NCBI GenBank assembly: GCA_016290095.1
Contig: JAEESU010000026.1
Location: forward strand, 8,573-72,572
Length of the DNA stretch: 64,000 bases
Reading direction: 5' to 3'
Origin: Clostridia bacterium
GTDB lineage: Bacteria; Bacillota; Clostridia; TANB77; CAG-508
Position 1 is the first letter of the stretch. Each line of letters opens with the position of its first letter. The notes beneath the pieces are model-generated. The model saw nothing but the letters and a program-made list of their open reading frames with translations. It did not search any database and was not told the DNA's origin. Both the position numbers and the translations under genes were made by a program. Positions 7,601 through 54,930 of this stretch are shown here, one piece after another.

Positions 7601-8791
7601 TTATTTTTCTGTTTTCTTTTTATAAATAATGATTAATGAAGTGATAATTGCTATAGCAGTAATAACTGTAAATGTAATTACTGCTGGATTTATTCCAACT
7701 TCTGGTAAAACACCTACTTCATCTTTTATAATATTTAATACTTCTTCTTTTGAAACTTTATTTGAATCTTCAACTACATTTGTAACAGAATTATTCACAG
7801 TGTTATTTGCAACACTTGATACAGTGTTTTCTTCATCACTTGGTTTTTTAGAAGAAAGCAAACTTGTTAATACATATGCTGTCTTTCCTTTATATGTTAC
7901 TTTAGACCAGCCATTACTTCCTACACCTGTTCTTGTTATTTCTTCTCCTAACTTCAATGAGCCAACTTGTTCAGTATCTGTTGAATATCCTTCTCTTACA
8001 TTACAATTTCTTACTGCATACATTTTTTCATTTACATCTTTAAATGTAACTTCTTTCTCTTTTGGAGCAGTTGTTGATAAATACTGTGAAGAAACATAAG
8101 CAGTTTGTCCTTTATATGCAACTCTAGACCACTTATCACTAATACCTGTTCTTGTTAATTTAGTTCCTTCACTAATTTTTGCTATAACAGAGCTACTAGT
8201 TGAATAACTTTTTCTAATATTCAAATCATCTACTGTAGCATATACTGTTTCGTTAACATCTTTAAATGTAACTGTTGTAGTTGGTGAAGTATTTGTGTTA
8301 GTACTACTAGTATTTGTACTTGTATTAGCACTTGTGTTTGTGTTTGTATTAGTAGTTGTATTGTTTACTACATTGTTTTTTACTGTAGTTTCTTTTTCCG
8401 CAATATTAAAAGTAATTGAATTAGGTGGATCTATATGGTTGCTTTTTTTATCTGAAATCGTACAGTCTTCCACAGTAACTGTTGCCTTCCCTGCTGCTTT
8501 TGCAGTAAAAGAAGCAGTCATATTTCCAGGATGATTTTCTAAATCAGGATCCCATTTGATTAACATTCCGCTTGAATCTGTTGATTTATCACTATATGTA
8601 ACTTTAATTATACCTTGATAACCAATTGCATCGCTTGGAATATTAACTGTTACTGTATAATTACTACCTTTTACTACATCGCTCGAAACGCTAATACTCG
8701 CTTGAGAAGCATTAACATGATTGATTGTAAGTACATTATATAATGCTAACAAAATTAATAAAATTGCAATTATTTTTTTTATTACTCTCAT
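7601..8791 (-). CDS. Cell-surface protein with two bacterial SH3 (SH3b) domains, a TNT-rich linker and a C-terminal sortase-type sorting signal with the variant motif LPEVG
   Basis: It has a signal peptide, two repeats of the form FKDVNE..Y....C/DLN.R.....S...G.....T...TG....W..V.YKG.TAYV, and a C-terminal LPEVG followed by a hydrophobic stretch and KKKTEK. It lies immediately downstream of a sortase gene. Confidence 0.6.
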   Translation of the reverse strand: MRVIKKIIAILLILLALYNVLTINHVNASQASISVSSDVVKGSNYTVTVNIPSDAIGYQGIIKVTYSDKSTDSSGMLIKWDPDLENHPGNMTASFTAKAAGKATVTVEDCTISDKKSNHIDPPNSITFNIAEKETTVKNNVVNNTTTNTNTNTSANTSTNTSSTNTNTSPTTTVTFKDVNETVYATVDDLNIRKSYSTSSSVIAKISEGTKLTRTGISDKWSRVAYKGQTAYVSSQYLSTTAPKEKEVTFKDVNEKMYAVRNCNVREGYSTDTEQVGSLKLGEEITRTGVGSNGWSKVTYKGKTAYVLTSLLSSKKPSDEENTVSSVANNTVNNSVTNVVEDSNKVSKEEVLNIIKDEVGVLPEVGINPAVITFTVITAIAIITSLIIIYKKKTEK

Positions 8792-8819
8792 TATTCACCA
8801 TTCCTTTTTCTTATGAAAT

Positions 8820-9485
8820 CTATTTTTCTTCTGCTTTTATAATAAGTCTTTCTGTTGAAGCACTTTCACATGTAATTAATGTAATTTCAACTTTATTCTC
8901 ATCTGGAATTAATGCTTCTAAATCTGTTGGCTCAACAGTTAATATATCTTTAACTTCATATTCTGTTTCAGAAAAATCTTTTTCTACAATTGTGATAATA
9001 TCTCCTTTGTCTAATTCGTTCAATTTTCCAAACATATTATCAAAATTATGCCCCGCTAAGCATAAATTTCCATAATTATTCAATGAACCACCATACAATT
9101 TAGAAATTCCCTTTTTTAATGCTTCTTCTTCAGTTGAATCTAATATGTATTGTTCAACATTTAGTTTTTTTATTTTTATCTTGCCTAATACTTTGTAACC
9201 CTCATATGTACTTTCCATAGCGATTGGTTCTGCAACAGTATTAGTTTGAACTAAATTCTCACTATTGTCTTTATTTGATCCTCTTGTTGATATAAATAAT
9301 GCAACTCCAACAATTACAATAATTGCAACTAAAGCACAAATAATTTTTATTTTAGTTATATTAGGTTCATCATCATATTCTTCGTAATATTCATCATTGT
9401 TTATATCGTTTTTTTCTTCTATTCTTTCGTTTTTTTGATCAAAGTAATATCCACCACCATCAGCAGAATGTTTTCCCTTTGCCAT
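8820..9485 (-). CDS. Sortase family transpeptidase
   Basis: It has an N-terminal TM anchor, the catalytic His in LAGHN and the catalytic Cys in the TLITC motif, and is 221 aa long. Confidence 0.8.
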   Translation of the reverse strand: MAKGKHSADGGGYYFDQKNERIEEKNDINNDEYYEEYDDEPNITKIKIICALVAIIVIVGVALFISTRGSNKDNSENLVQTNTVAEPIAMESTYEGYKVLGKIKIKKLNVEQYILDSTEEEALKKGISKLYGGSLNNYGNLCLAGHNFDNMFGKLNELDKGDIITIVEKDFSETEYEVKDILTVEPTDLEALIPDENKVEITLITCESASTERLIIKAEEK

Positions 9486-9519
9486 AATTACACCTCCAAT
9501 TTATCATATGAATTTTTAT

Positions 9520-10383
9520 TTATATTTCTCTTAATACGTGATACAATGTTTCTTTTATGAATTCTGCTGAAGTTAATGGGGCAACTTTTGCAGGTAATGA
9601 TAATGCCCATATTACTTTTAAATTTTTTTCTCTTGCAGCTTTTCTATCAACTCCACCAGGATTAGAAGCCAAATCTATAATTACAGCTTCTTTTTTTACT
9701 AAATCTAATTTCTCACTATCTAACAATTGAAAAGGAATTGTATTTATAATAATATCAAATTTTCCTAAATTCTCACTTAAGTCATTTAAATGAATTGGAT
9801 TATAACCATATGCTTTTATCCATGATATATCTTCATCTTTTCTTGCTTCACAATATACTTTAGCACCTATTCCATCTAACATTTTTGCTAATACTTTTCC
9901 AATTCTACCAAATCCCATAACTAAAGTATTAGTACCATGCACTGTTCTTTGCGTTTCCTCCATTGCAATTTGGATAGTTCCTTCTGCTGTTGCAATTGTA
10001 TTTAAAACAGAAAATTCTTCTCTTTTTAATAAATCTGTACATTGAATTTGATTTGCATCAAGTTCTTCTTTTATTCCAATATTTCCTGCAATAAGGTATT
10101 TTCCTTTTAAAACTTCTATAAAGTCTTCTAACTCAACAAAGTTTCTTCCAAATGGTGTAGAAACTCTTTTTTTATCACTTGATAGAGGAATTGGTCCAAT
10201 AACAACTTTTGAATGGCTTACAGCCTCTTCTAATGTTGGGCACATTGCAACTCCTTCCAGACAAAGTAACTCGTCTGCATTTTCAAGTCCATAAGTATAA
10301 ACTTCATACCCATCCTTATCCAACATTTCTACAAGTTTTACAATACGTAAATCTCCACCTACAACTGTTATTGATTTTTCCAT
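9520..10383 (-). CDS. dpaA: Dipicolinate synthase subunit A (SpoVFA/DpaA family)
   Basis: The protein contains ITVVGGDLR, AEGTIQIAMEETQRTVHGTNTLVMGFGRIGKVLA and DIIINTIP..IDLASNPGG, and is collinear with B. subtilis SpoVFA. No dpaB lies adjacent. Confidence 0.7.
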   Translation of the reverse strand: MEKSITVVGGDLRIVKLVEMLDKDGYEVYTYGLENADELLCLEGVAMCPTLEEAVSHSKVVIGPIPLSSDKKRVSTPFGRNFVELEDFIEVLKGKYLIAGNIGIKEELDANQIQCTDLLKREEFSVLNTIATAEGTIQIAMEETQRTVHGTNTLVMGFGRIGKVLAKMLDGIGAKVYCEARKDEDISWIKAYGYNPIHLNDLSENLGKFDIIINTIPFQLLDSEKLDLVKKEAVIIDLASNPGGVDRKAAREKNLKVIWALSLPAKVAPLTSAEFIKETLYHVLREI

Positions 10384-10414: not shown

Positions 10415-11800
10415 TTAGTTTTTACCTGCATACTTTTGTTTATCTATATTATCAATTTCTTTATTGACTTTTTCTTCAGTTATTCCAAGAAACTTATCTA
10501 TAGCTTCTTTCTTTTCTGCTTCTTCAATTTTTTTATTTTTTTCTTTTCCAAAAAGATAATCTAATCTTTCGTTTACTTCTTTTTTAGTAGTATTTTCACT
10601 CATTTCTTCAATTAGTTTAGCTGAAGCTTCTAAATATTGTCTTGCTAATTTTTCTTGTTCTATAATAATACTATTTCTCTTATAACCATTACTATAATCT
10701 TCGTATTCAAAAGGCTTATCATCTTCGTCTACTACTGCTTCTTCTTCATATTCTTCTTTTCCATCTAATTTTACAGAAACAGAAATATGTTGTTTTATTT
10801 TTTCAAAACACTTCTCTAAATCAACTAGTTTTAATAAACTTGGATCTAATTCAATTGCCTTATTAAGAAATGCAATTGCTTTATCTTTTTCACCTTTTAA
10901 CATACTTATTTTAGCTAATTGAAAATAAGATATTGCTTCAAAATCATCATATAAACTGCTTTCAAAATATCTTTGAGCTGTATCATAATCTCTTTGTATA
11001 AATGCAATCAATCCTAAATTGTAGCCAGCACCATACATTCTATGATTAATAGCTGCAGCTTTTTCATACATTTCTTTTGCAAGTTGAAAATCGCTCAATC
11101 TTGTATAAACAATTCCTAAATTATAGTATAAATCATAAGAAGCAGGATTATACTTTAAAGCTTCACTATATACATTTGCTGCTTCTTTAAATCTTTCTTC
11201 TTCGCATAATAAATCCCCTAATAAACAAGATGCTTCAAAACAATCTGGTTTTATTTTTATTAGATGATTTAGCATTTCAATTGCTTCTTCTCTTTTACCT
11301 AAATTTTTTAATAATTCTGTTATTTTAAAATAAGATTTATAGTCTTTTTTATTGATATCAACTGCTGTAACATATTCGTCTATTGCACGTCTCATGCCAC
11401 CTTCTTTTTCATATATTTGAGCAAGAAACTTGTGTCCCAAATAACTTTCAGGATATTTTGAAACTAATTTTATTAAAATATCTTTTGCCTTTTTGGAATC
11501 CCCAAACATTATTGAAAGTTTTGCTGTACAGATACTTAATAATTCAGAAAAATTAATTCCACATAATTCTATAATAATAATGCATAGTGGTATTACTATA
11601 GCAAATATATATCTGATGATTACCCAAAATAATTTTTCTTCTATATTAAATTTTAATACAATAAAACTAATCGTGATTCCTATAGCTTCTAAAATTAAAG
11701 ATAAAAAATAATTAGTATCATTTTTTCTTATTATTTTCAAGAAAACTATAATGAAAAACGAAAAAGCAAACATGTTAAATAGCAATTTTTCTAACATCAA
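10415..11800 (-). CDS. Membrane-anchored tetratricopeptide-repeat protein
   Basis: It has three to four N-terminal TM helices followed by multiple TPR-like 34-residue repeats such as AANVYSEALKYNPASYDLYYNLGIVY. Confidence 0.6.
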   Translation of the reverse strand: MMLEKLLFNMFAFSFFIIVFLKIIRKNDTNYFLSLILEAIGITISFIVLKFNIEEKLFWVIIRYIFAIVIPLCIIIIELCGINFSELLSICTAKLSIMFGDSKKAKDILIKLVSKYPESYLGHKFLAQIYEKEGGMRRAIDEYVTAVDINKKDYKSYFKITELLKNLGKREEAIEMLNHLIKIKPDCFEASCLLGDLLCEEERFKEAANVYSEALKYNPASYDLYYNLGIVYTRLSDFQLAKEMYEKAAAINHRMYGAGYNLGLIAFIQRDYDTAQRYFESSLYDDFEAISYFQLAKISMLKGEKDKAIAFLNKAIELDPSLLKLVDLEKCFEKIKQHISVSVKLDGKEEYEEEAVVDEDDKPFEYEDYSNGYKRNSIIIEQEKLARQYLEASAKLIEEMSENTTKKEVNERLDYLFGKEKNKKIEEAEKKEAIDKFLGITEEKVNKEIDNIDKQKYAGKN

Positions 11801-11898: not shown

Positions 11899-11936
11899 GG
11901 ACGGACTAGTTGGCTTCTGCCAGTAAGTCCGTCCCC
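11899..11936. other. Isolated GC-rich stem-loop (GGACGGACT...AGTCCGTCC) just 3' of the HD-GYP regulator gene
   Basis: It is a perfect 9-bp stem in an otherwise AT-rich intergenic region. It shares the 8-mer GTCCCCGT with the palindromic repeat family at 38.9 kb and 51.7 kb. It lacks a U-tract on the minus strand, so it is not a classic terminator. Confidence 0.4.
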
Positions 11937-11942
11937 GTTAAT

Positions 11943-13004
11943 TTAACTTGCAAATTTTAATTTTATTTCTTTTATTTTATCAAATTTATTATCTAATATT
12001 CTAACCATTGCTTCTGCAACTTCTGGATCAAATTGCTTACCAGCCCCCTCAATAATATTATTTTTAACAACATCTAAATCAAGTTCATCTCTATATGACC
12101 TTTTTGATGTCATAGCATCAAAAGCATCAGCAACAGCAACAATTCTTGCTAAAAATGGGATCCTCTTTCCTTTTATTCCTTGTGGATAACCTTCTCCGTC
12201 ATATCTTTCATGATGTGAATATACTATTGGAACAATATCTCTAAATATTGTGCTGTTAGCAATAATTTGTTTTCCTATAATAGGATGTTTTTTTATTTCT
12301 TCATATTCACTATCTGATAATTTTCCTTTTTTAGATAATATTGTATCTGGAATCCCTATTTTTCCTATATCATGAAACATTCCGCCTATATTTAATACTC
12401 TTAAGTCTTTATCATATAATCCAAGTTCTTCACCTATTAATACTGAATACGCAGCTACTCTATCAGAATGCCCTCTTGTATATGCATCTTTTAATTCAAC
12501 TGTGTATCTTAGCATTTCTATTGTTTCTAGATATGCCTTCTCTAGTTTTTCTTTTGACTCCTTTAATTCTGTGTTCATTTCTTTGATTATTTGCATTTGC
12601 TCAATTGATTTAAATGCAGATTCAATTAATAATAGCAATTGATCAAATTTATCTTCTTTCTCACAATATGCTTGTATTGATAATTTCTTTATTGTTTTTA
12701 AAGGTGAAACTAAAGATTTATGTCCTGTAAAAAGAATAATATATAATTCTTTATCAAATTTTCTTATTTCTTCTACAACTGCATCACCACGAATTGGATC
12801 CATCATATAATCCAGAATCATTAAATCAAAGTGTTCATTCTCTATTCTTTCTATGGCTTCATTTGGATTTGTACATCCAACTAATTTATAACCCATTTTT
12901 TTAATGGGTTTAGCTAATGAATCAATTACGCTCTGATCATCATCAACTGCGAGTATTTTATATTTTTTATTCTTTTTTTTGATTTCCTTGGTAAGTCTTT
13001 TCAT
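11943..13004 (-). CDS. Response regulator with a receiver domain fused to an HD-GYP c-di-GMP phosphodiesterase domain
   Basis: The REC domain is visible as KILAVDDDQSV...LMILDYMMD, and the HD-GYP domain as HSDRVAAY...HDIGKIGIPD...HHERYDGEGYP. The likely start is the internal Met of MKRLTKE at 13004, preceded by a GGAGGG RBS. Confidence 0.8.
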   Translation of the reverse strand: MKRLTKEIKKKNKKYKILAVDDDQSVIDSLAKPIKKMGYKLVGCTNPNEAIERIENEHFDLMILDYMMDPIRGDAVVEEIRKFDKELYIILFTGHKSLVSPLKTIKKLSIQAYCEKEDKFDQLLLLIESAFKSIEQMQIIKEMNTELKESKEKLEKAYLETIEMLRYTVELKDAYTRGHSDRVAAYSVLIGEELGLYDKDLRVLNIGGMFHDIGKIGIPDTILSKKGKLSDSEYEEIKKHPIIGKQIIANSTIFRDIVPIVYSHHERYDGEGYPQGIKGKRIPFLARIVAVADAFDAMTSKRSYRDELDLDVVKNNIIEGAGKQFDPEVAEAMVRILDNKFDKIKEIKLKFAS

Positions 13005-13063
13005 AAAAAAGCCCTCCATTTCTACCATTTGAGTAAATATTTTATTAATCAGAAACTTATATC

Positions 13064-25592: not shown

Positions 25593-25667
25593 TGGCTCGG
25601 GTGGTTAGATTCGAACTAACGAATGTCGGAGTCAGAGTCCGATGCCTTACCGCTTGGCGACACCCGA
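25593..25667 (-). tRNA. tRNA-Gln(CUG)
   Basis: I folded the minus-strand 75-nt sequence by hand. The acceptor TCGGGTG/CACCCGA has a U1:A72 pair and a G73 discriminator. The T-arm is GTTAG-TTCGAAT-CTAAC. The anticodon loop is CTCTGAC with anticodon CTG. CCA is encoded. A hairpin plus T-run terminator lies immediately 3' at about 25543-25585. Confidence 0.8.
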
Positions 25668-50869: not shown

Positions 50870-50996
50870 TAAAAAGCGATGTGTTAAGCATTATTTAAAT
50901 AATTTTTAACATATCGCTAAATTTTTTTAATTTTTTTAAAATTTTTTGTCACATTTTGCTACTCTGAATTGTTTTACTTATGAGAGGAGTAAAAAT

Positions 50997-51689
50997 ATGA
51001 TTAAAGTTTTAATAGTTTGTAAACAATTAGAAAATGCAAAGAAAATATTCAATAATATTGTAAGTAAAATTAAAAATCTACATTTAATTGGAATTGCAAA
51101 TTCGTTTCAAGAAGCAAAAAAGATATTAATAGATGAAGAAGCAGATATTATTATCACAACTTCGAAAAATACTGTTACATTTATAAAAAATAATTTTATT
51201 ACATATAATCCTGGTATTATAATTATTGATAATATTCCAAGAATTGAATTTGATTATCGCAAAGCCTTAATTATTAGTAATGAGAAAAGTCTTGATGAAA
51301 TAAAAGATAGAATACAATTCTTTTTAAGACACAATATTGAAAAATCTCAAAAAGAAACAATATCTTCCGTTTTAACTCAATTAGGCTTCAGCTTTAATTG
51401 GTCTGGAACAATATATCTTTTAGATTCAATTTTATACGCACATTCATATAAAGGCTCATATAGTTTTGAACGTGTTAAACGAGATATTTATTTTAATGTA
51501 GCTAATTCCAATAATACCACAAGTAGTAGAGTAAAATGGTCTATAGAAAGAGCAATAAAATACATGTACAGTAAGCATACTAAAGAAACATATAAATATG
51601 TAGAAAAATTACTAAAAATTAAATATCCACAAAGACCTGTTGCAAAACAAATTATCAGCATTGTAGCAAATTCTTTAGATTTACTTTAA
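50997..51689 (+). CDS. Spo0A-like protein with a degenerate, non-phosphorylatable receiver domain plus a Spo0A_C DNA-binding domain
   Basis: The C-terminal 120 aa align with Spo0A_C: ISSVLTQLG..GTIYLLDSILYA, NTTSSRVKWSIERAIKYMYS and RPVAKQIISIVANSL. The N-terminal fold is receiver-like, but the acidic pocket and phospho-Asp are replaced (KVLIVCKQ and DIIITTSKN). The start was chosen at MIKV, which follows a GAGGAG RBS. Confidence 0.6.
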   Translation: MIKVLIVCKQLENAKKIFNNIVSKIKNLHLIGIANSFQEAKKILIDEEADIIITTSKNTVTFIKNNFITYNPGIIIIDNIPRIEFDYRKALIISNEKSLDEIKDRIQFFLRHNIEKSQKETISSVLTQLGFSFNWSGTIYLLDSILYAHSYKGSYSFERVKRDIYFNVANSNNTTSSRVKWSIERAIKYMYSKHTKETYKYVEKLLKIKYPQRPVAKQIISIVANSLDLL

Positions 51690-51699
51690 TTGGCAAGAG

Positions 51700-51830
51700 T
51701 TTCACAGTTTCACAGGGACGTTCCTTTTAGTGCCAAAATGAAACTAAAGGGACACTCCTTATATAAGGAGTGTCCCAAGTGTGTCAAAATAGAACTAAAA
51801 GGAACGTCCCTGTGAAACTGTGAAAAAATG
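51700..51830. repeat. Full-length nested palindromic intergenic repeat element between convergent genes
   Basis: The outer 32-bp inverted arms are TTTCACAGTTTCACAGGGACGTTCCTTTTAGT and ACTAAAAGGAACGTCCCTGTGAAACTGTGAAA. The inner perfect palindrome is GGGACACTCCTTATATAAGGAGTGTCCC. Confidence 0.7.
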
Positions 51831-51843
51831 AAACCGTGGAATT

Positions 51844-54621
51844 TTAGCTTAAATTATCTCTACAGTTTTCACATAGTGTTGGGTGCTCTGCATTTTGTCC
51901 TACTGTTTCTGAATACATCCAGCATCTTTCACATTTTTCTCCACTGGCTTTTTCAACTTTAACACCTAAATCTACTTCTTCATCTGCATTTCTTCTATTG
52001 CTTAATATTTCAACATCAGATACTATGAATACATCTTTTAATATATCTCTGTTTTCTTTTAAAAATTCATATTGATCATTTTCTTCCGCATAAAGTGTAA
52101 CTTTTGCTTCTAATGATAATCCTATTTCTTTTTCTGTCCTTGCTACTTCTAGTTTTTTACTTACAGCATCTTTTATTTTTATAATTTTTTCCCATTTTAA
52201 TGATAATGCTTCATCATCATATTTTGGATTTACTTTTGGATAATACTCAAGCATAACACTTTCTGTATTTTCTCCATTTTTATGTTGCATATAACTCCAT
52301 ATTTCTTCTGCAGTAAAGCATGTCATTGGAGCTAGTATTCTAACTAAACAAGATAATATTTCATACATTGTTGTTTGAGCTGCTCTTCTTTCTATAGATT
52401 GAGGTTTAGTTACATATAATCTATTTTTTATGATATCTAAGTAGAATTGACTCATATCAACAACGCAAAATTGATTGATTGCTTGATAAGCTTCATGGAA
52501 ATCATAATTATCATATGCTTTCGTGCAAGTTCTTATTAAATTGTTTAATCTTGTTAAAGCCCATTTATCTATTTCTTGTAAATCTTCATATGCTACTGGA
52601 TTGTTTGGATTATAATCATAAGTATTTCCTAATATATATCTAGCTGTGTTTCTTATTTTTCTGTATACTTCTGTTACTTGTTTTAATATATTCTTAGATA
52701 CACTTACATCTGATTGATAGTCTGATGCAAGAACCCAAAGTCTTAAAACATCTGCTCCGGATTCCTTAATTATTTCTTGAGGAGCAATTACATTTCCTAC
52801 AGATTTACTCATTTTTCTTCCTTGTTCATCAACTGTATATCCGTGAGTAACAACTTGTTTATAAGGTGCTTTTCCAAAATTTGCTACAGATGTTAAAAGT
52901 GAACTTTGGAACCATCCTCTATATTGGTCAGATCCTTCTAAGTAAAGATCTGCTTCTGGAAGTCCTCTTTCCTCCAATACTGAATGATATGTTGATCCGC
53001 TATCAAACCAAACATCCATAATATCTGTTTCTTTCTTAAATTCTGTACATCCGCATTCGCATTTAGCATTCTCAGGCATTAATTCTTTTTCAGATAAATC
53101 GAACCATGCGTTTGACCCTTTTTCTTTAAATATTTCTTGAACTTTCTTTAATGACTCATCTGTCATATATGGCTTACCGCAATCTTTACAATAGAATGCT
53201 GGAATTGGAACTCCCCATGTTCTTTGACGAGATATACACCAATCATTTCTATCTTCAACCATTTTTGAGATTCTTTCTTCACCCCAAGCAGGTATCCATT
53301 TTACAGTTTTAATTGCTTCTAATGTTTCTTTTCTAAATCCATCAACAGATGCAAACCACTGATTTGTAGCTCTAAATATAACTGGTTTTTTACATCTCCA
53401 GCAATGTGGATATGAGTGCATTACATCTTCTTCTTTTAGTAATAAATTATGTTCTTCTAACCATTTTAAGATTTCTTTGTTTGATTTAGCATAAAACATA
53501 TCTTTAAATGGTCCAGCGCCTTCTCCTCTTTGAACACCTTTTTCATCAACAGTTACTATTATTTCACTATTTTTCTTTAATCCTAATAAATAGTCTTCTT
53601 TACCATAACTAGGTGCACAGTGAACTAATCCAGAGCCTGTTTCAAGTTCTACATTAACAGTATCTTCTGAACCATTTACAACTAAAGAATCTCTATCTAA
53701 AAATGGATGACGACAAACTAAACCTTCTAATTCTGCTCCATCAAACTCTTTTAATACTTTATATTCTTTTATACCAGCTTTTTCCATTACTTTATTTACA
53801 AGTTCTGATGCGATTACTATTTTTTCACCATTTTCTTCAACTAAAGCGTATTTGAAATCTGGTCCAGCAGCAATCATAGTATTTCCAGGTAATGTCCATG
53901 GAGTTGTTGTCCAAATTACAAAATAAGTATTTTCTTTATCAAATAATCCTTTACTATCTTTAACAGGAAATTTTACAAAAGCAGTTTGACTCATTACATC
54001 TTTATATTCGATTTCTGCTTCTGCTAATGCTGTTTCACAATCTGTGCACCAATAAACTGGTTTTAATCCTTTATAAATGTATCCTTTTCTATACATACCA
54101 GCAAACACTTCAACTTGTTTTGCTTCCATTTGAGGTTGATATGTTATATATGGATGTTCCCAATCTCCTAATACTCCTAATCTTTTAAATCCTTCTGTTT
54201 GAGCATCTTTATATTTTGATGTAAATTCTCTACAAGTATCTCTAAATGTATTTACAGGTATTTTACTTCTATCCAATCCTAATTTTTCTATTGCCTTTTT
54301 CTCTGTTGGCATACCATGTGTATCGTATCCAGGAATATAAGGAGTATAATATCCTTGTAAATTTTTATATCTAACAACAGTATCTTTTAATACTTTATTT
54401 AGTGCATGACCTATATGAATTTCTCCATTTGCATATGGAGGTCCATCATGTAGCACAAATGGTGTTTTACCCTCATTCTTTTTTAACATTTTTTCATATA
54501 AACCATTTTCAAATACTTTTTCTAGTATTTTAGGTTCATTTTCTGGTAAACTTGCTCTCATTGGAAACTCTGTTTTTGGCAAGTTTAGTGTTTTTCCATA
54601 ATCTTTCTTTTCTTCACACAT
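51844..54621 (-). CDS. ileS: Isoleucine--tRNA ligase
   Basis: It is 925 aa long. It has a HIGH-type motif (PYANGEIHIGH), KMSKS, and a C-terminal zinc-binding set of Cys residues. Confidence 0.95.
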   Translation of the reverse strand: MCEEKKDYGKTLNLPKTEFPMRASLPENEPKILEKVFENGLYEKMLKKNEGKTPFVLHDGPPYANGEIHIGHALNKVLKDTVVRYKNLQGYYTPYIPGYDTHGMPTEKKAIEKLGLDRSKIPVNTFRDTCREFTSKYKDAQTEGFKRLGVLGDWEHPYITYQPQMEAKQVEVFAGMYRKGYIYKGLKPVYWCTDCETALAEAEIEYKDVMSQTAFVKFPVKDSKGLFDKENTYFVIWTTTPWTLPGNTMIAAGPDFKYALVEENGEKIVIASELVNKVMEKAGIKEYKVLKEFDGAELEGLVCRHPFLDRDSLVVNGSEDTVNVELETGSGLVHCAPSYGKEDYLLGLKKNSEIIVTVDEKGVQRGEGAGPFKDMFYAKSNKEILKWLEEHNLLLKEEDVMHSYPHCWRCKKPVIFRATNQWFASVDGFRKETLEAIKTVKWIPAWGEERISKMVEDRNDWCISRQRTWGVPIPAFYCKDCGKPYMTDESLKKVQEIFKEKGSNAWFDLSEKELMPENAKCECGCTEFKKETDIMDVWFDSGSTYHSVLEERGLPEADLYLEGSDQYRGWFQSSLLTSVANFGKAPYKQVVTHGYTVDEQGRKMSKSVGNVIAPQEIIKESGADVLRLWVLASDYQSDVSVSKNILKQVTEVYRKIRNTARYILGNTYDYNPNNPVAYEDLQEIDKWALTRLNNLIRTCTKAYDNYDFHEAYQAINQFCVVDMSQFYLDIIKNRLYVTKPQSIERRAAQTTMYEILSCLVRILAPMTCFTAEEIWSYMQHKNGENTESVMLEYYPKVNPKYDDEALSLKWEKIIKIKDAVSKKLEVARTEKEIGLSLEAKVTLYAEENDQYEFLKENRDILKDVFIVSDVEILSNRRNADEEVDLGVKVEKASGEKCERCWMYSETVGQNAEHPTLCENCRDNLS

Positions 54622-54629
54622 TTTAATAT

Positions 54630-54930
54630 ACTCCCTTTCTTATATTTTAATAAAAACAAAAAAGCTATTTCATCCTACATAGGACGAAATAGCTTGAAAT
54701 TCCGTGGTACCACCTAAATTAATTAATTATCGAAATTAATTCACTTATTTTTCTCTTAACGCGAGTAAACGAATTGTTTTACTATTAATTCAAACAATCA
54801 GCTCTAAGGTGATAATAAATAGTTTATTATCTTGCTAAACTTTCAGCCCATGATTTAGCTCTCTAAAAAAGTTTTACACTATTTACCTTGTCCTTTTCTT
54901 TGCTTTTATTTATTAATATAATAATCTTAA
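54630..54930 (-). promoter_or_regulatory. T-box riboswitch leader of ileS, with its promoter
   Basis: On the minus strand, the T-box consensus AATTTAGGTGGTACCACGG lies at 54702-54720, and a terminator hairpin AAGCTATTTCGTCCTATGTAGGATGAAATAGCTT followed by T6 lies at 54662-54695. A candidate specifier AUC-A sits in the stem I region. A TTGACA -35 and a TGtTAAGAT extended -10 lie at about 54925-54955. Confidence 0.75.

Follow-up and report, generated by a model that had tools for sequence, protein, structure and literature searches.

The spacer between a Spo0A-like gene and ileS, in a 64,000-nt stretch of a Clostridia bacterium (contig JAEESU010000026.1, positions 8,573 to 72,572; this whole stretch is called the window below), is occupied by a 126-nt palindrome. 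We found that it is composed of two inverted units of a dispersed repeat family, one further unit of which lies just behind gap, and that its architecture recalls the repetitive extragenic palindromic sequences (REPs) of other bacteria and their hairpin-forming doublets, the REPINs. The Spo0A-like gene and ileS are convergent, with stops at 51689 and 51844, and the features of this junction are the following.

50946-51689, + strand: gene with a Spo0A_C domain (Pfam domain match)
51700-51825, no strand assigned: 126-nt palindrome, a REPIN-like dimer of two units tail to tail with the spacer TTATATAA; the nhmmer family model matches both halves
51698-51760, + strand: left unit (nhmmer match 51706-51760, +), with the prefix AGTTTCAC-AGTTTCACA
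51715-51724, + strand: Box 1 of the left unit, GGGACGTTCC (sequence and motif scan)
51723-51735 with 51739-51751, + strand: hairpin of the left unit, 11 of 13 pairs
51749-51758, + strand: Box 2 of the left unit, GGGACACTCC (sequence and motif scan)
51749-51776, no strand assigned: central perfect 28-nt palindrome GGGACACTCCTTATATAAGGAGTGTCCC, formed by the two Box 2 ends and the spacer
51765-51825, - strand: right unit, inverted (nhmmer match 51819-51765, -), with Box 1 at 51810-51801 and Box 2 at 51776-51767
51844-54621, - strand: ileS (IleRS), domain identity confirmed

An earlier note on this DNA had described 32-bp perfect arms enclosing a perfect 28-bp palindrome at this place, and both are indeed there: the outer arms, TTTCACAGTTTCACAGGGACGTTCCTTTTAGT, are perfectly inverted over 32 nt (51700-51731 and 51794-51825, read directly and checked by script) and enclose the central palindrome. 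Over their 63 nt, the two halves (51700-51762 and 51763-51825) are complementary at 53 positions (84%), and the ten mismatches are all confined to a single stretch of about 16 nt, which is the internal hairpin segment of the right unit. Since the right unit has a degenerate stem of its own, the dimer of the window is either a heterodimer or a decayed or old copy. The palindrome has a GC content of 39.7% vs 28.4% in the window, and the RNA fold of 51700-51825 reaches -82 to -87 kcal/mol on either strand, with z values of -14 to -16 against shuffled sequences.

The second locus of the window lies downstream of gap, and its features are given here on the same scale.

38852-38885, no strand assigned: intrinsic-terminator-like bidirectional hairpin of gap, given for context; the unit sits between the gap stop codon and this hairpin
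38900-38954, - strand: single complete unit in sense orientation, starting 1 nt past the gap stop codon
38945-38936 and 38911-38902, - strand: Box 1 and Box 2 (GGGACACTCT) of this unit, whose hairpin has 12 of 13 pairs
38956-39975, - strand: gap (GAPDH), with Gp_dh_N/C domain matches

This copy had been taken for a truncated relative of the palindrome, but it turns out to be a complete monomer, and the palindrome is the corresponding dimer. As single-stranded DNA it folds into a hairpin (z = -3.2). Counting by sequence, CACRGGGACGTTCCTTTTAGT has three exact matches in the window, while none of 100 shuffles contained any, and GGGACRYTCC has five matches against 0.01 expected. Altogether, motif scans place three units at two loci of the window, where about zero would be expected.

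A unit measures about 55 nt and is built of a prefix (GTTTCACAG) in one to three tandem copies, the tag GGGACGTT, a hairpin of 13 bp and a 3' tail ACACTCY followed by TT. In terms of boxes, the order is prefix, Box 1 (GGGACGTTCC), stem-loop, Box 2 (GGGACACTC(C/T)) and TT. The prefix reads (A/G)GTTYCWCR and is repeated one to three times with a 9-nt period (the 9-mer may also be written GTTYCWCRG). Since the final CC of Box 1 and the initial GGG of Box 2 fall inside the stem, GGGACGTT is left as a single-stranded tag on the 5' side and ACACTCY as a tail on the 3' side. Covariation was analyzed in 17 distinct units, including diverged ones from the metagenome-assembled genome (MAG) UBA7001 (L014) and from L032 (loci outside the window are given L numbers). 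The 13-bp stem is 84% paired and seven of its 13 pairs show compensatory double changes, a result that none of 500 column shuffles reached, and pairing falls to 25-54% when the register is slid. GGGACG is invariant in 17 of the 17 units, and the boxes stay constant while the stems change. An alternative fold that pairs the 5' prefix with the 3' arm of the stem was rejected; the window copies pair perfectly in this way, but over the whole family pairing is only 73% and 28-247 of 500 shuffles did equally well. The 7-mer GGGACGT alone was also discarded as a marker, being by a rough estimate not enriched over composition in the loci of relatives and informative only in the context of a hairpin.

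Two further observations concern the ends of the unit. The tandem 9-mer prefix is seen in the window at 51698-51714 and 51811-51825, and also in L002 (1868-1887), L005 (7976-7990) and L009 (6186-6210). At the other end, Box 2 and the invariant TT (51752-51760 and 38908-38900, -, in the window, and in all units) read CACUCCUU in RNA, one base short of the anti-Shine-Dalgarno end of 16S rRNA, CACCUCCUU. The reverse complement of Box 2 and TT is TAAGGAG, that is, a stop codon with a Shine-Dalgarno-like sequence, and at several loci (among them L032 and the transposase gene of L002 described below) the stop codon of the adjacent gene is the TAA of this TAAGGAG.

Copies of the unit are not restricted to the window. 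The exact 19-mer core CRGGGACGTTCCTTTTAGT was found at 13 metagenome loci, two of which (L008 and L011, 42-44% GC) were set aside as chance matches in unrelated DNA. The other 11 core-bearing loci have 26-35% GC, collapse to nine distinct ones and have nothing in common with the window except the repeat; further copies therefore exist, and the window loci are not the result of the local duplication that the earlier note had contemplated. With the hidden Markov model (HMM) of the family we found more than 20 units in the core-bearing metagenome loci, both lone and tail to tail. Pairs of the second kind are those of the window (51700-51825), L001, L009 and L003 (2198-2260); lone units occur after gap and in L002, L006, L007 and L014. 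The exact core had no match in 185,579 GTDB species genomes (one per species), a set that contains neither the source species nor close relatives with this core, and none in viral contigs. The IleRS of the window is most similar to that of MAG UBA7001 (81%), with Clostridium sp. CAG:571 at 73%, and by this protein similarity the organism is placed among the uncultured gut and rumen Clostridia. Two diverged units in UBA7001 and one in L032 carry the same boxes with different, compensated stems. Sister sub-families in L032, L097, L103, L107 and L108 have in common only a GGG(G)ACGT tag, placed beside or within a hairpin. In this sense, the species-specific element that had been proposed is not strictly so, since related genera show the GGGACGT tag and the architecture again, combined with other stems.

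The corresponding sites of relatives lack the element. In L094, whose Spo0A-like protein is 84% identical to that of the window, a plain bidirectional terminator hairpin without unit stands at the ileS junction, and the ten relatives defined by IleRS (L014-L023) have ordinary terminators or other genes at that junction, again without the element. After gap, L015 has the terminator only and no unit. As a side observation, L028 (about 12790-12846, -) and L024 (12766-12800) carry GGGACGT-tagged sequences of their own directly downstream of ileS, the hairpin being clear in L028 and weaker in L024. Both sequences are unlike the element of the window, which suggests that sites of this kind were reached independently.

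Units are nearly always intergenic. Many border or overlap a stop codon, at a distance of no more than 4 nt in about eight cases. The earlier statement that the copies lie just 3' of genes applies to both unit loci of the window, but other members of the family are found 5' of genes or between divergent ones, and in either orientation. By manual tally, about six units are sense and about three to four antisense with respect to the adjacent gene, and units occur in a divergent promoter region (L013) and just upstream of genes (L004/L005, and L014 at 5154). The presence of both orientations and of varied contexts is more easily reconciled with a DNA-level element than with an RNA motif. A sister-family unit was also seen inside a called gene, a TRAM/methyltransferase gene (8456-9823) of L107 (MAG GCA_016280725.1), where it occupies 8783-8815.

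A candidate partner enzyme was found among the metagenome loci. A pre-screen with the sequence of a REP-associated tyrosine transposase (RAYT) flagged L002, where a transposase gene stands between two units.

L002 1919-2680, - strand: Y1/HUH transposase gene, 253 aa (Pfam and NCBIfam matches)
L002 2852-2798 (-) and 1879-1934 (+), inverted: units bracketing this gene, the first 117 nt upstream and the second, downstream, overlapping its stop codon

The bracketing reproduces the tail-to-tail geometry that the palindrome of the window shows with the gene removed, as in the REPtron arrangement, and a further unit (L013) lies elsewhere on the same 197-kb contig. The 253-aa protein matches Pfam Y1_Tnp with E = 2.2e-11 (44 bits vs a cutoff of 23 bits) and contains the HUH motif NHAHIL and the tyrosine motif YIHDNP (Y---NP). 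It has at least 847 homologues, mostly of about 250 aa. A search of the PDB with the single sequence gave nothing and a profile was required; the profile of 28 homologues had the E. coli TnpA_REP structure 4ER8 as best match (E = 3.8e-5), with IS200/IS605 TnpA at 0.08 or worse. In agreement, 28 of the 28 homologues match REP_Tyr_transpos and 16 also match IS200, more weakly. The AlphaFold2 model of the protein (pLDDT 85.6) has a helical C-terminal domain at residues 188-250, and Foldseek placed 4er8_A first (E = 6e-8, target TM 0.71), followed by the TnpA proteins of IS608 and ISDra2. In the C-terminal 60 residues or so, weak helix-turn-helix (HTH) matches were found among the 28 homologues (HTH_23 in nine, HTH_24 in seven, HTH_28 in five). 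An identity of this C-terminus with DnaA domain IV is not supported by Pfam, as Bac_DnaA_C is not among the 25 most frequent Pfam families of these homologues.

The association between gene and repeat is not confined to L002. Four homologous genes with 40-49% identity (L097, L103, L107 and L108) are all bracketed by inverted hairpins tagged GGG(G)ACGT, with extra dispersed tagged copies near them, and in L107 three tandem inverted units follow the RAYT gene (10745-10840). Each RAYT homologue has the same syntenic neighbours in the contigs of different samples, which is suggestive of the single copy and vertical inheritance known from RAYTs; such a fixed place is the behaviour of a RAYT and not of an insertion sequence. 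Every RAYT gene examined also carries a G-run, hairpin and T-run (for example GGGGCAAAACTTT...AAGTTTTGCTTTTTTT) between the upstream unit and the ribosome-binding site (L002 2735-2690, -; L097 about 9945-9985; L103 about 9925-9990; L107 about 9950-9990). This leader hairpin looks like a conserved terminator or attenuator, and it could keep the transposase silent.

Taking these results together, we consider that the window loci belong to a REP/REPIN-type non-autonomous family that is mobilised or maintained in trans by a Y1 transposase of the RAYT/TIRYT class, and we give this explanation a probability of roughly 0.8. A chromosomal, apparently single-copy HUH/Y1 RAYT of about 250 aa, in which a C-terminal HTH is added to the Y1 core, would bind the hairpin and the GGGACGT tag on single-stranded DNA. 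The enzyme would be encoded elsewhere in the window's own genome and, by cutting and rejoining next to the hairpin, it would allow the units to spread or be maintained in trans, perhaps to this day. The units would settle for the most part directly behind stop codons, where they are tolerated, and there they would form, as a side effect, very stable hairpins at the 3' end of transcripts.

REPINs and RAYTs have been described mainly in Proteobacteria (PMC2817692, PMC3337134). As in the REP/BIME of E. coli and the REPINs of Pseudomonas, the repeats described here are short intergenic hairpins whose 5' foot bears a conserved, unpaired tag, occur as singlets and as inverted doublets that form long hairpins, and lie mostly downstream of genes; inverted units bracket a single Y1/HUH gene whose product has 4ER8 as best profile and fold match. 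Unlike those systems, the tag is GGGACGT(T) instead of GTAG, the unit is longer (about 55 nt) and carries a tandem 9-mer prefix as well as another conserved box on the 3' side of the stem, the enzyme of about 250 aa has a C-terminal HTH, and the host is an uncultured gut Clostridium of 28% GC. With the IS200/IS605 insertion sequences and the non-autonomous elements derived from them (PATEs) our family shares the Y1/HUH superfamily, subterminal hairpins as recognition elements and the absence of target-site duplication. It differs from IS200/IS605 in that the gene is apparently not multi-copy, has a fixed syntenic place and is not accompanied by tnpB, both flanks consist of one and the same unit in inverted arrangement, in place of a distinct left end and right end, and profile and fold matches favour TnpA_REP over IS200 TnpA. 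The CGTC-tagged REPs (Di Nocera et al., 2013) are also short tagged hairpins, and the sister sub-families read GGGGACGTCC, which contains CGTC, a likeness of four letters only. Those REPs differ in their stems of 8-9 bp, their CCA tail and their mostly alphaproteobacterial hosts, and they are reported without a dedicated transposase, whereas here a transposase is bracketed by units. In the literature searched, no paper described this family or REPINs in Firmicutes/Clostridia.

Several points weigh against a RAYT-dependent family. The 64-kb window contains no RAYT gene, and for the source genome the count stands at only three units at two loci. It is an inference that the metagenome contigs with near-identical units and the RAYT belong to the same or a sister organism. 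Against NCBIfam REP_Tyr_transpos, the L002 protein scores 66.8 bits (E = 1.9e-18), which is below the curated cutoff of 80 bits. The tag is GGGACGT and not the classical GTAG, and as single-stranded DNA the single-unit hairpins of the window dimer are weak or degenerate. Contigs that are nearly identical but come from different samples do not differ in presence or absence of units, the apparent indels being scaffold gaps, and thus give no direct sign of recent movement. Finally, the genomes compared as empty sites are different species, so they do not provide exact insertion boundaries or target sites.

Among the other explanations, the one that survives best is an RNA element selected by the host, such as a stabiliser of the 3' untranslated region, an unconventional bidirectional terminator or a site for an RNA-binding protein, with the link to the transposase being secondary. 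Both window copies stand immediately 3' of genes, the RNA fold of the palindrome is extremely stable, and covariation of the stem would be equally expected for an RNA. On the - strand, that of the ileS transcript, the central palindrome followed by TTTAGTTT is the only match to a terminator pattern at the ileS junction, and in L006 Box 2 of the unit pairs with an inverted Box 2 and a T-run follows. However, the units have mixed orientation and occur in 5' and divergent-promoter regions, as described above, and a T-run is absent after the full 126-nt hairpin on both strands. The gap unit lacks a T-run, and since a normal terminator stands separately behind it, the unit is not needed there. In the region of the element no Rfam family reached its gathering score, the only such matches in the window being a T-box and a tRNA elsewhere; by E-value, the region gives only sub-threshold matches to miRNA precursors, which are typical of any long hairpin. 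Units also bracket Y1 transposase genes at five independent loci. For these reasons we regard an origin as a host RNA element as unlikely.

A function at the 3' end is nevertheless compatible with a RAYT-dependent family. Since the ileS/Spo0A-like junction has no separate terminator, the element probably doubles there as a 3'-end or terminator structure. The gap unit, in contrast, is redundant with the normal terminator as a 3'-end structure. The earlier note had preferred a repeat or binding element to an ordinary terminator; the REP-like part of that view stands, but such an origin does not preclude terminator function, given the central palindrome and TTTAGTTT on the ileS strand.

Units could also be sites for a DNA-binding protein of the host, either a nucleoid or topology factor or the HTH of a domesticated RAYT that does not transpose, and be kept for a function at chromosome level; we judge this as very unlikely. 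For the REP/BIME of E. coli, binding by gyrase and IHF has reportedly been proposed. Two invariant 10-nt boxes (GGGACGTTCC and GGGACACTCY) are kept across genera while the stem changes, the RAYT has an extra HTH domain and appears to be single-copy and syntenic, and the units show no polymorphism among samples, all of which would suit binding sites. The core of the prefix, TTTCACA or TTCCACA, agrees with WTNCACA, a portion of the DnaA-box consensus given in PMC6006769 as TTWTNCACA. On the other hand, the 9-mer prefix is missing from the sister sub-families (L097, L103, L107, L108 and L032), and the HTH matches of the RAYT homologues are to generic short families and not, among the 25 most frequent, to Bac_DnaA_C. 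Moreover, the positions of units differ between related genomes, which requires some dispersal mechanism even if the units serve as binding sites.

That the element is a conventional miniature inverted-repeat transposable element (MITE), derived by deletion from a DDE-type insertion sequence with terminal inverted repeats, is highly improbable: the 126-nt element does have long inverted ends and the size of a MITE, but the gap copy and most metagenome copies are single half-units without a second inverted end, the flanks of 51700-51825 (left GGCAAGAG, right AAATGAAAC) contain no direct target-site duplication, plasmid and phage collections gave no BLAST match to the element, and the sole transposase found bracketed by units is Y1/HUH and not DDE. 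Of the REP/MITE-like label that had been given to the palindrome, the first half is thus the one that holds, on account of the unrelated loci, the covarying hairpin, the tail-to-tail dimers and the bracketed Y1 gene, whereas lone monomers and the lack of target duplication speak against the second.

Returning to the RAYT-dependent family, it also has close known counterparts in the TIRtrons and their TIRYT enzymes. RAYTs of Group 1 are found in Clostridia as well and have been linked to flanking 16-mers of only moderate frequency (Bertels et al., 2017, PMC5581495). Group 1 corresponds to subclass 2.1, whose C-terminal HTH extension is Bac_DnaA_C, HTH_23 or HTH_28, and next to subclass 2.1 genes no REP-like sequences or secondary structures were found (Quentin et al., 2018, PMC6006769). 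The TIRYTs, with which subclass 2.1 has been equated, were described by Di Nocera et al. (2013, PMC3733652) and have GGGGWSAS as a motif common to their flanking inverted repeats. The enzyme described here has the same architecture of Y1 core, Y---NP motif and C-terminal HTH. As in TIRtrons, a G-rich motif is present in the inverted repeats on both sides of the gene, the 3' end of the gene is overlapped by the repeat downstream of it, and the families of repeats, with single and dimeric copies, are of moderate abundance. We compared the boxes with GGGGWSAS and found that Box 2 reads GGGGACAC or GGGGACAG, which fit, in 6 of 17 units and AGGGACAC in others, and that Box 1 (GGGGACGT) fits at six of eight positions. 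Unlike what was reported for subclass 2.1, the flanking repeats are here clear covarying hairpins that are also dispersed.

In this sense, it is tempting to propose, although only as a tentative extension, that the units are the 'missing' REPs of the HTH-bearing TIRYTs of Group 1 or subclass 2.1, the largest group of RAYTs. A low-GC clade of gut and rumen Clostridia may then keep REPIN-like populations in which the GGGACGT tag is constant and the stems co-vary with RAYT lineages of 40-49% mutual identity, the TTYCACA prefix could be the docking site of the C-terminal HTH of the enzyme, and some copies may have been exapted where essential genes such as ileS converge, as the sole structure at their 3' ends.

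Whatever the outcome of this proposal, the GGGACGT-tagged repeats are a family of the REPtron/TIRtron type in an unstudied clade of Clostridia. As genomic parasites or passengers they are of an already known kind, a variation on a known theme and not a new principle. Here the HTH-bearing RAYT architecture is paired with structured, covarying and dispersed hairpins, which offers a concrete substrate for tests of recognition by the enzyme. These repeats of about 55-126 nt are also assembly breakpoints and traps for mis-annotation in gut MAGs, as stop codons overlap the ends of units and the L107 unit lies within a gene. In addition, the repeats could be useful as lineage markers for this poorly known clade.

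Another hairpin of the window, at 11899-11936, had been described as a relative of the palindrome, but ACGGGGACG is all that it has in common with the family, neither the family HMM nor BLAST recovers it, and we do not count it as a member. It is a real hairpin with a GC content of 60% and z = -6.2, without a U-tract on either strand, and a response-regulator/HD-domain gene (11943-13028, -) has its stop codon 6 nt before it. The 13-mer GGACGGACTAGTT is found in this hairpin and also in the two arms of a hairpin of L036 (9885-9967) that is located just upstream of the ileS of that relative. This may represent a second repeat family or a chance 13-mer match (BLAST E of about 1).

Regarding the neighbouring genes, the Spo0A-like gene encodes only the Spo0A_C DNA-binding domain (residues 139-244), with no receiver domain detected by Pfam at E <= 1e-5, and its likely ATG start gives a product of 230 aa. 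In metagenomes, orthologues with 43-84% identity are frequent, and their neighbours are again holin_4_2 upstream and a convergent ileS. A T-box leader precedes ileS at 54677-54909 (-), with an Rfam score of 118 bits. Elsewhere in the window there is a tRNA gene at 25596-25667 (-), and at 31451-31501 a perfect 23-nt inverted repeat (AAAAAGTAATAAAAGGAGATAAC / GTTATCTCCTTTTATTACTTTTT) resembles a bidirectional terminator.

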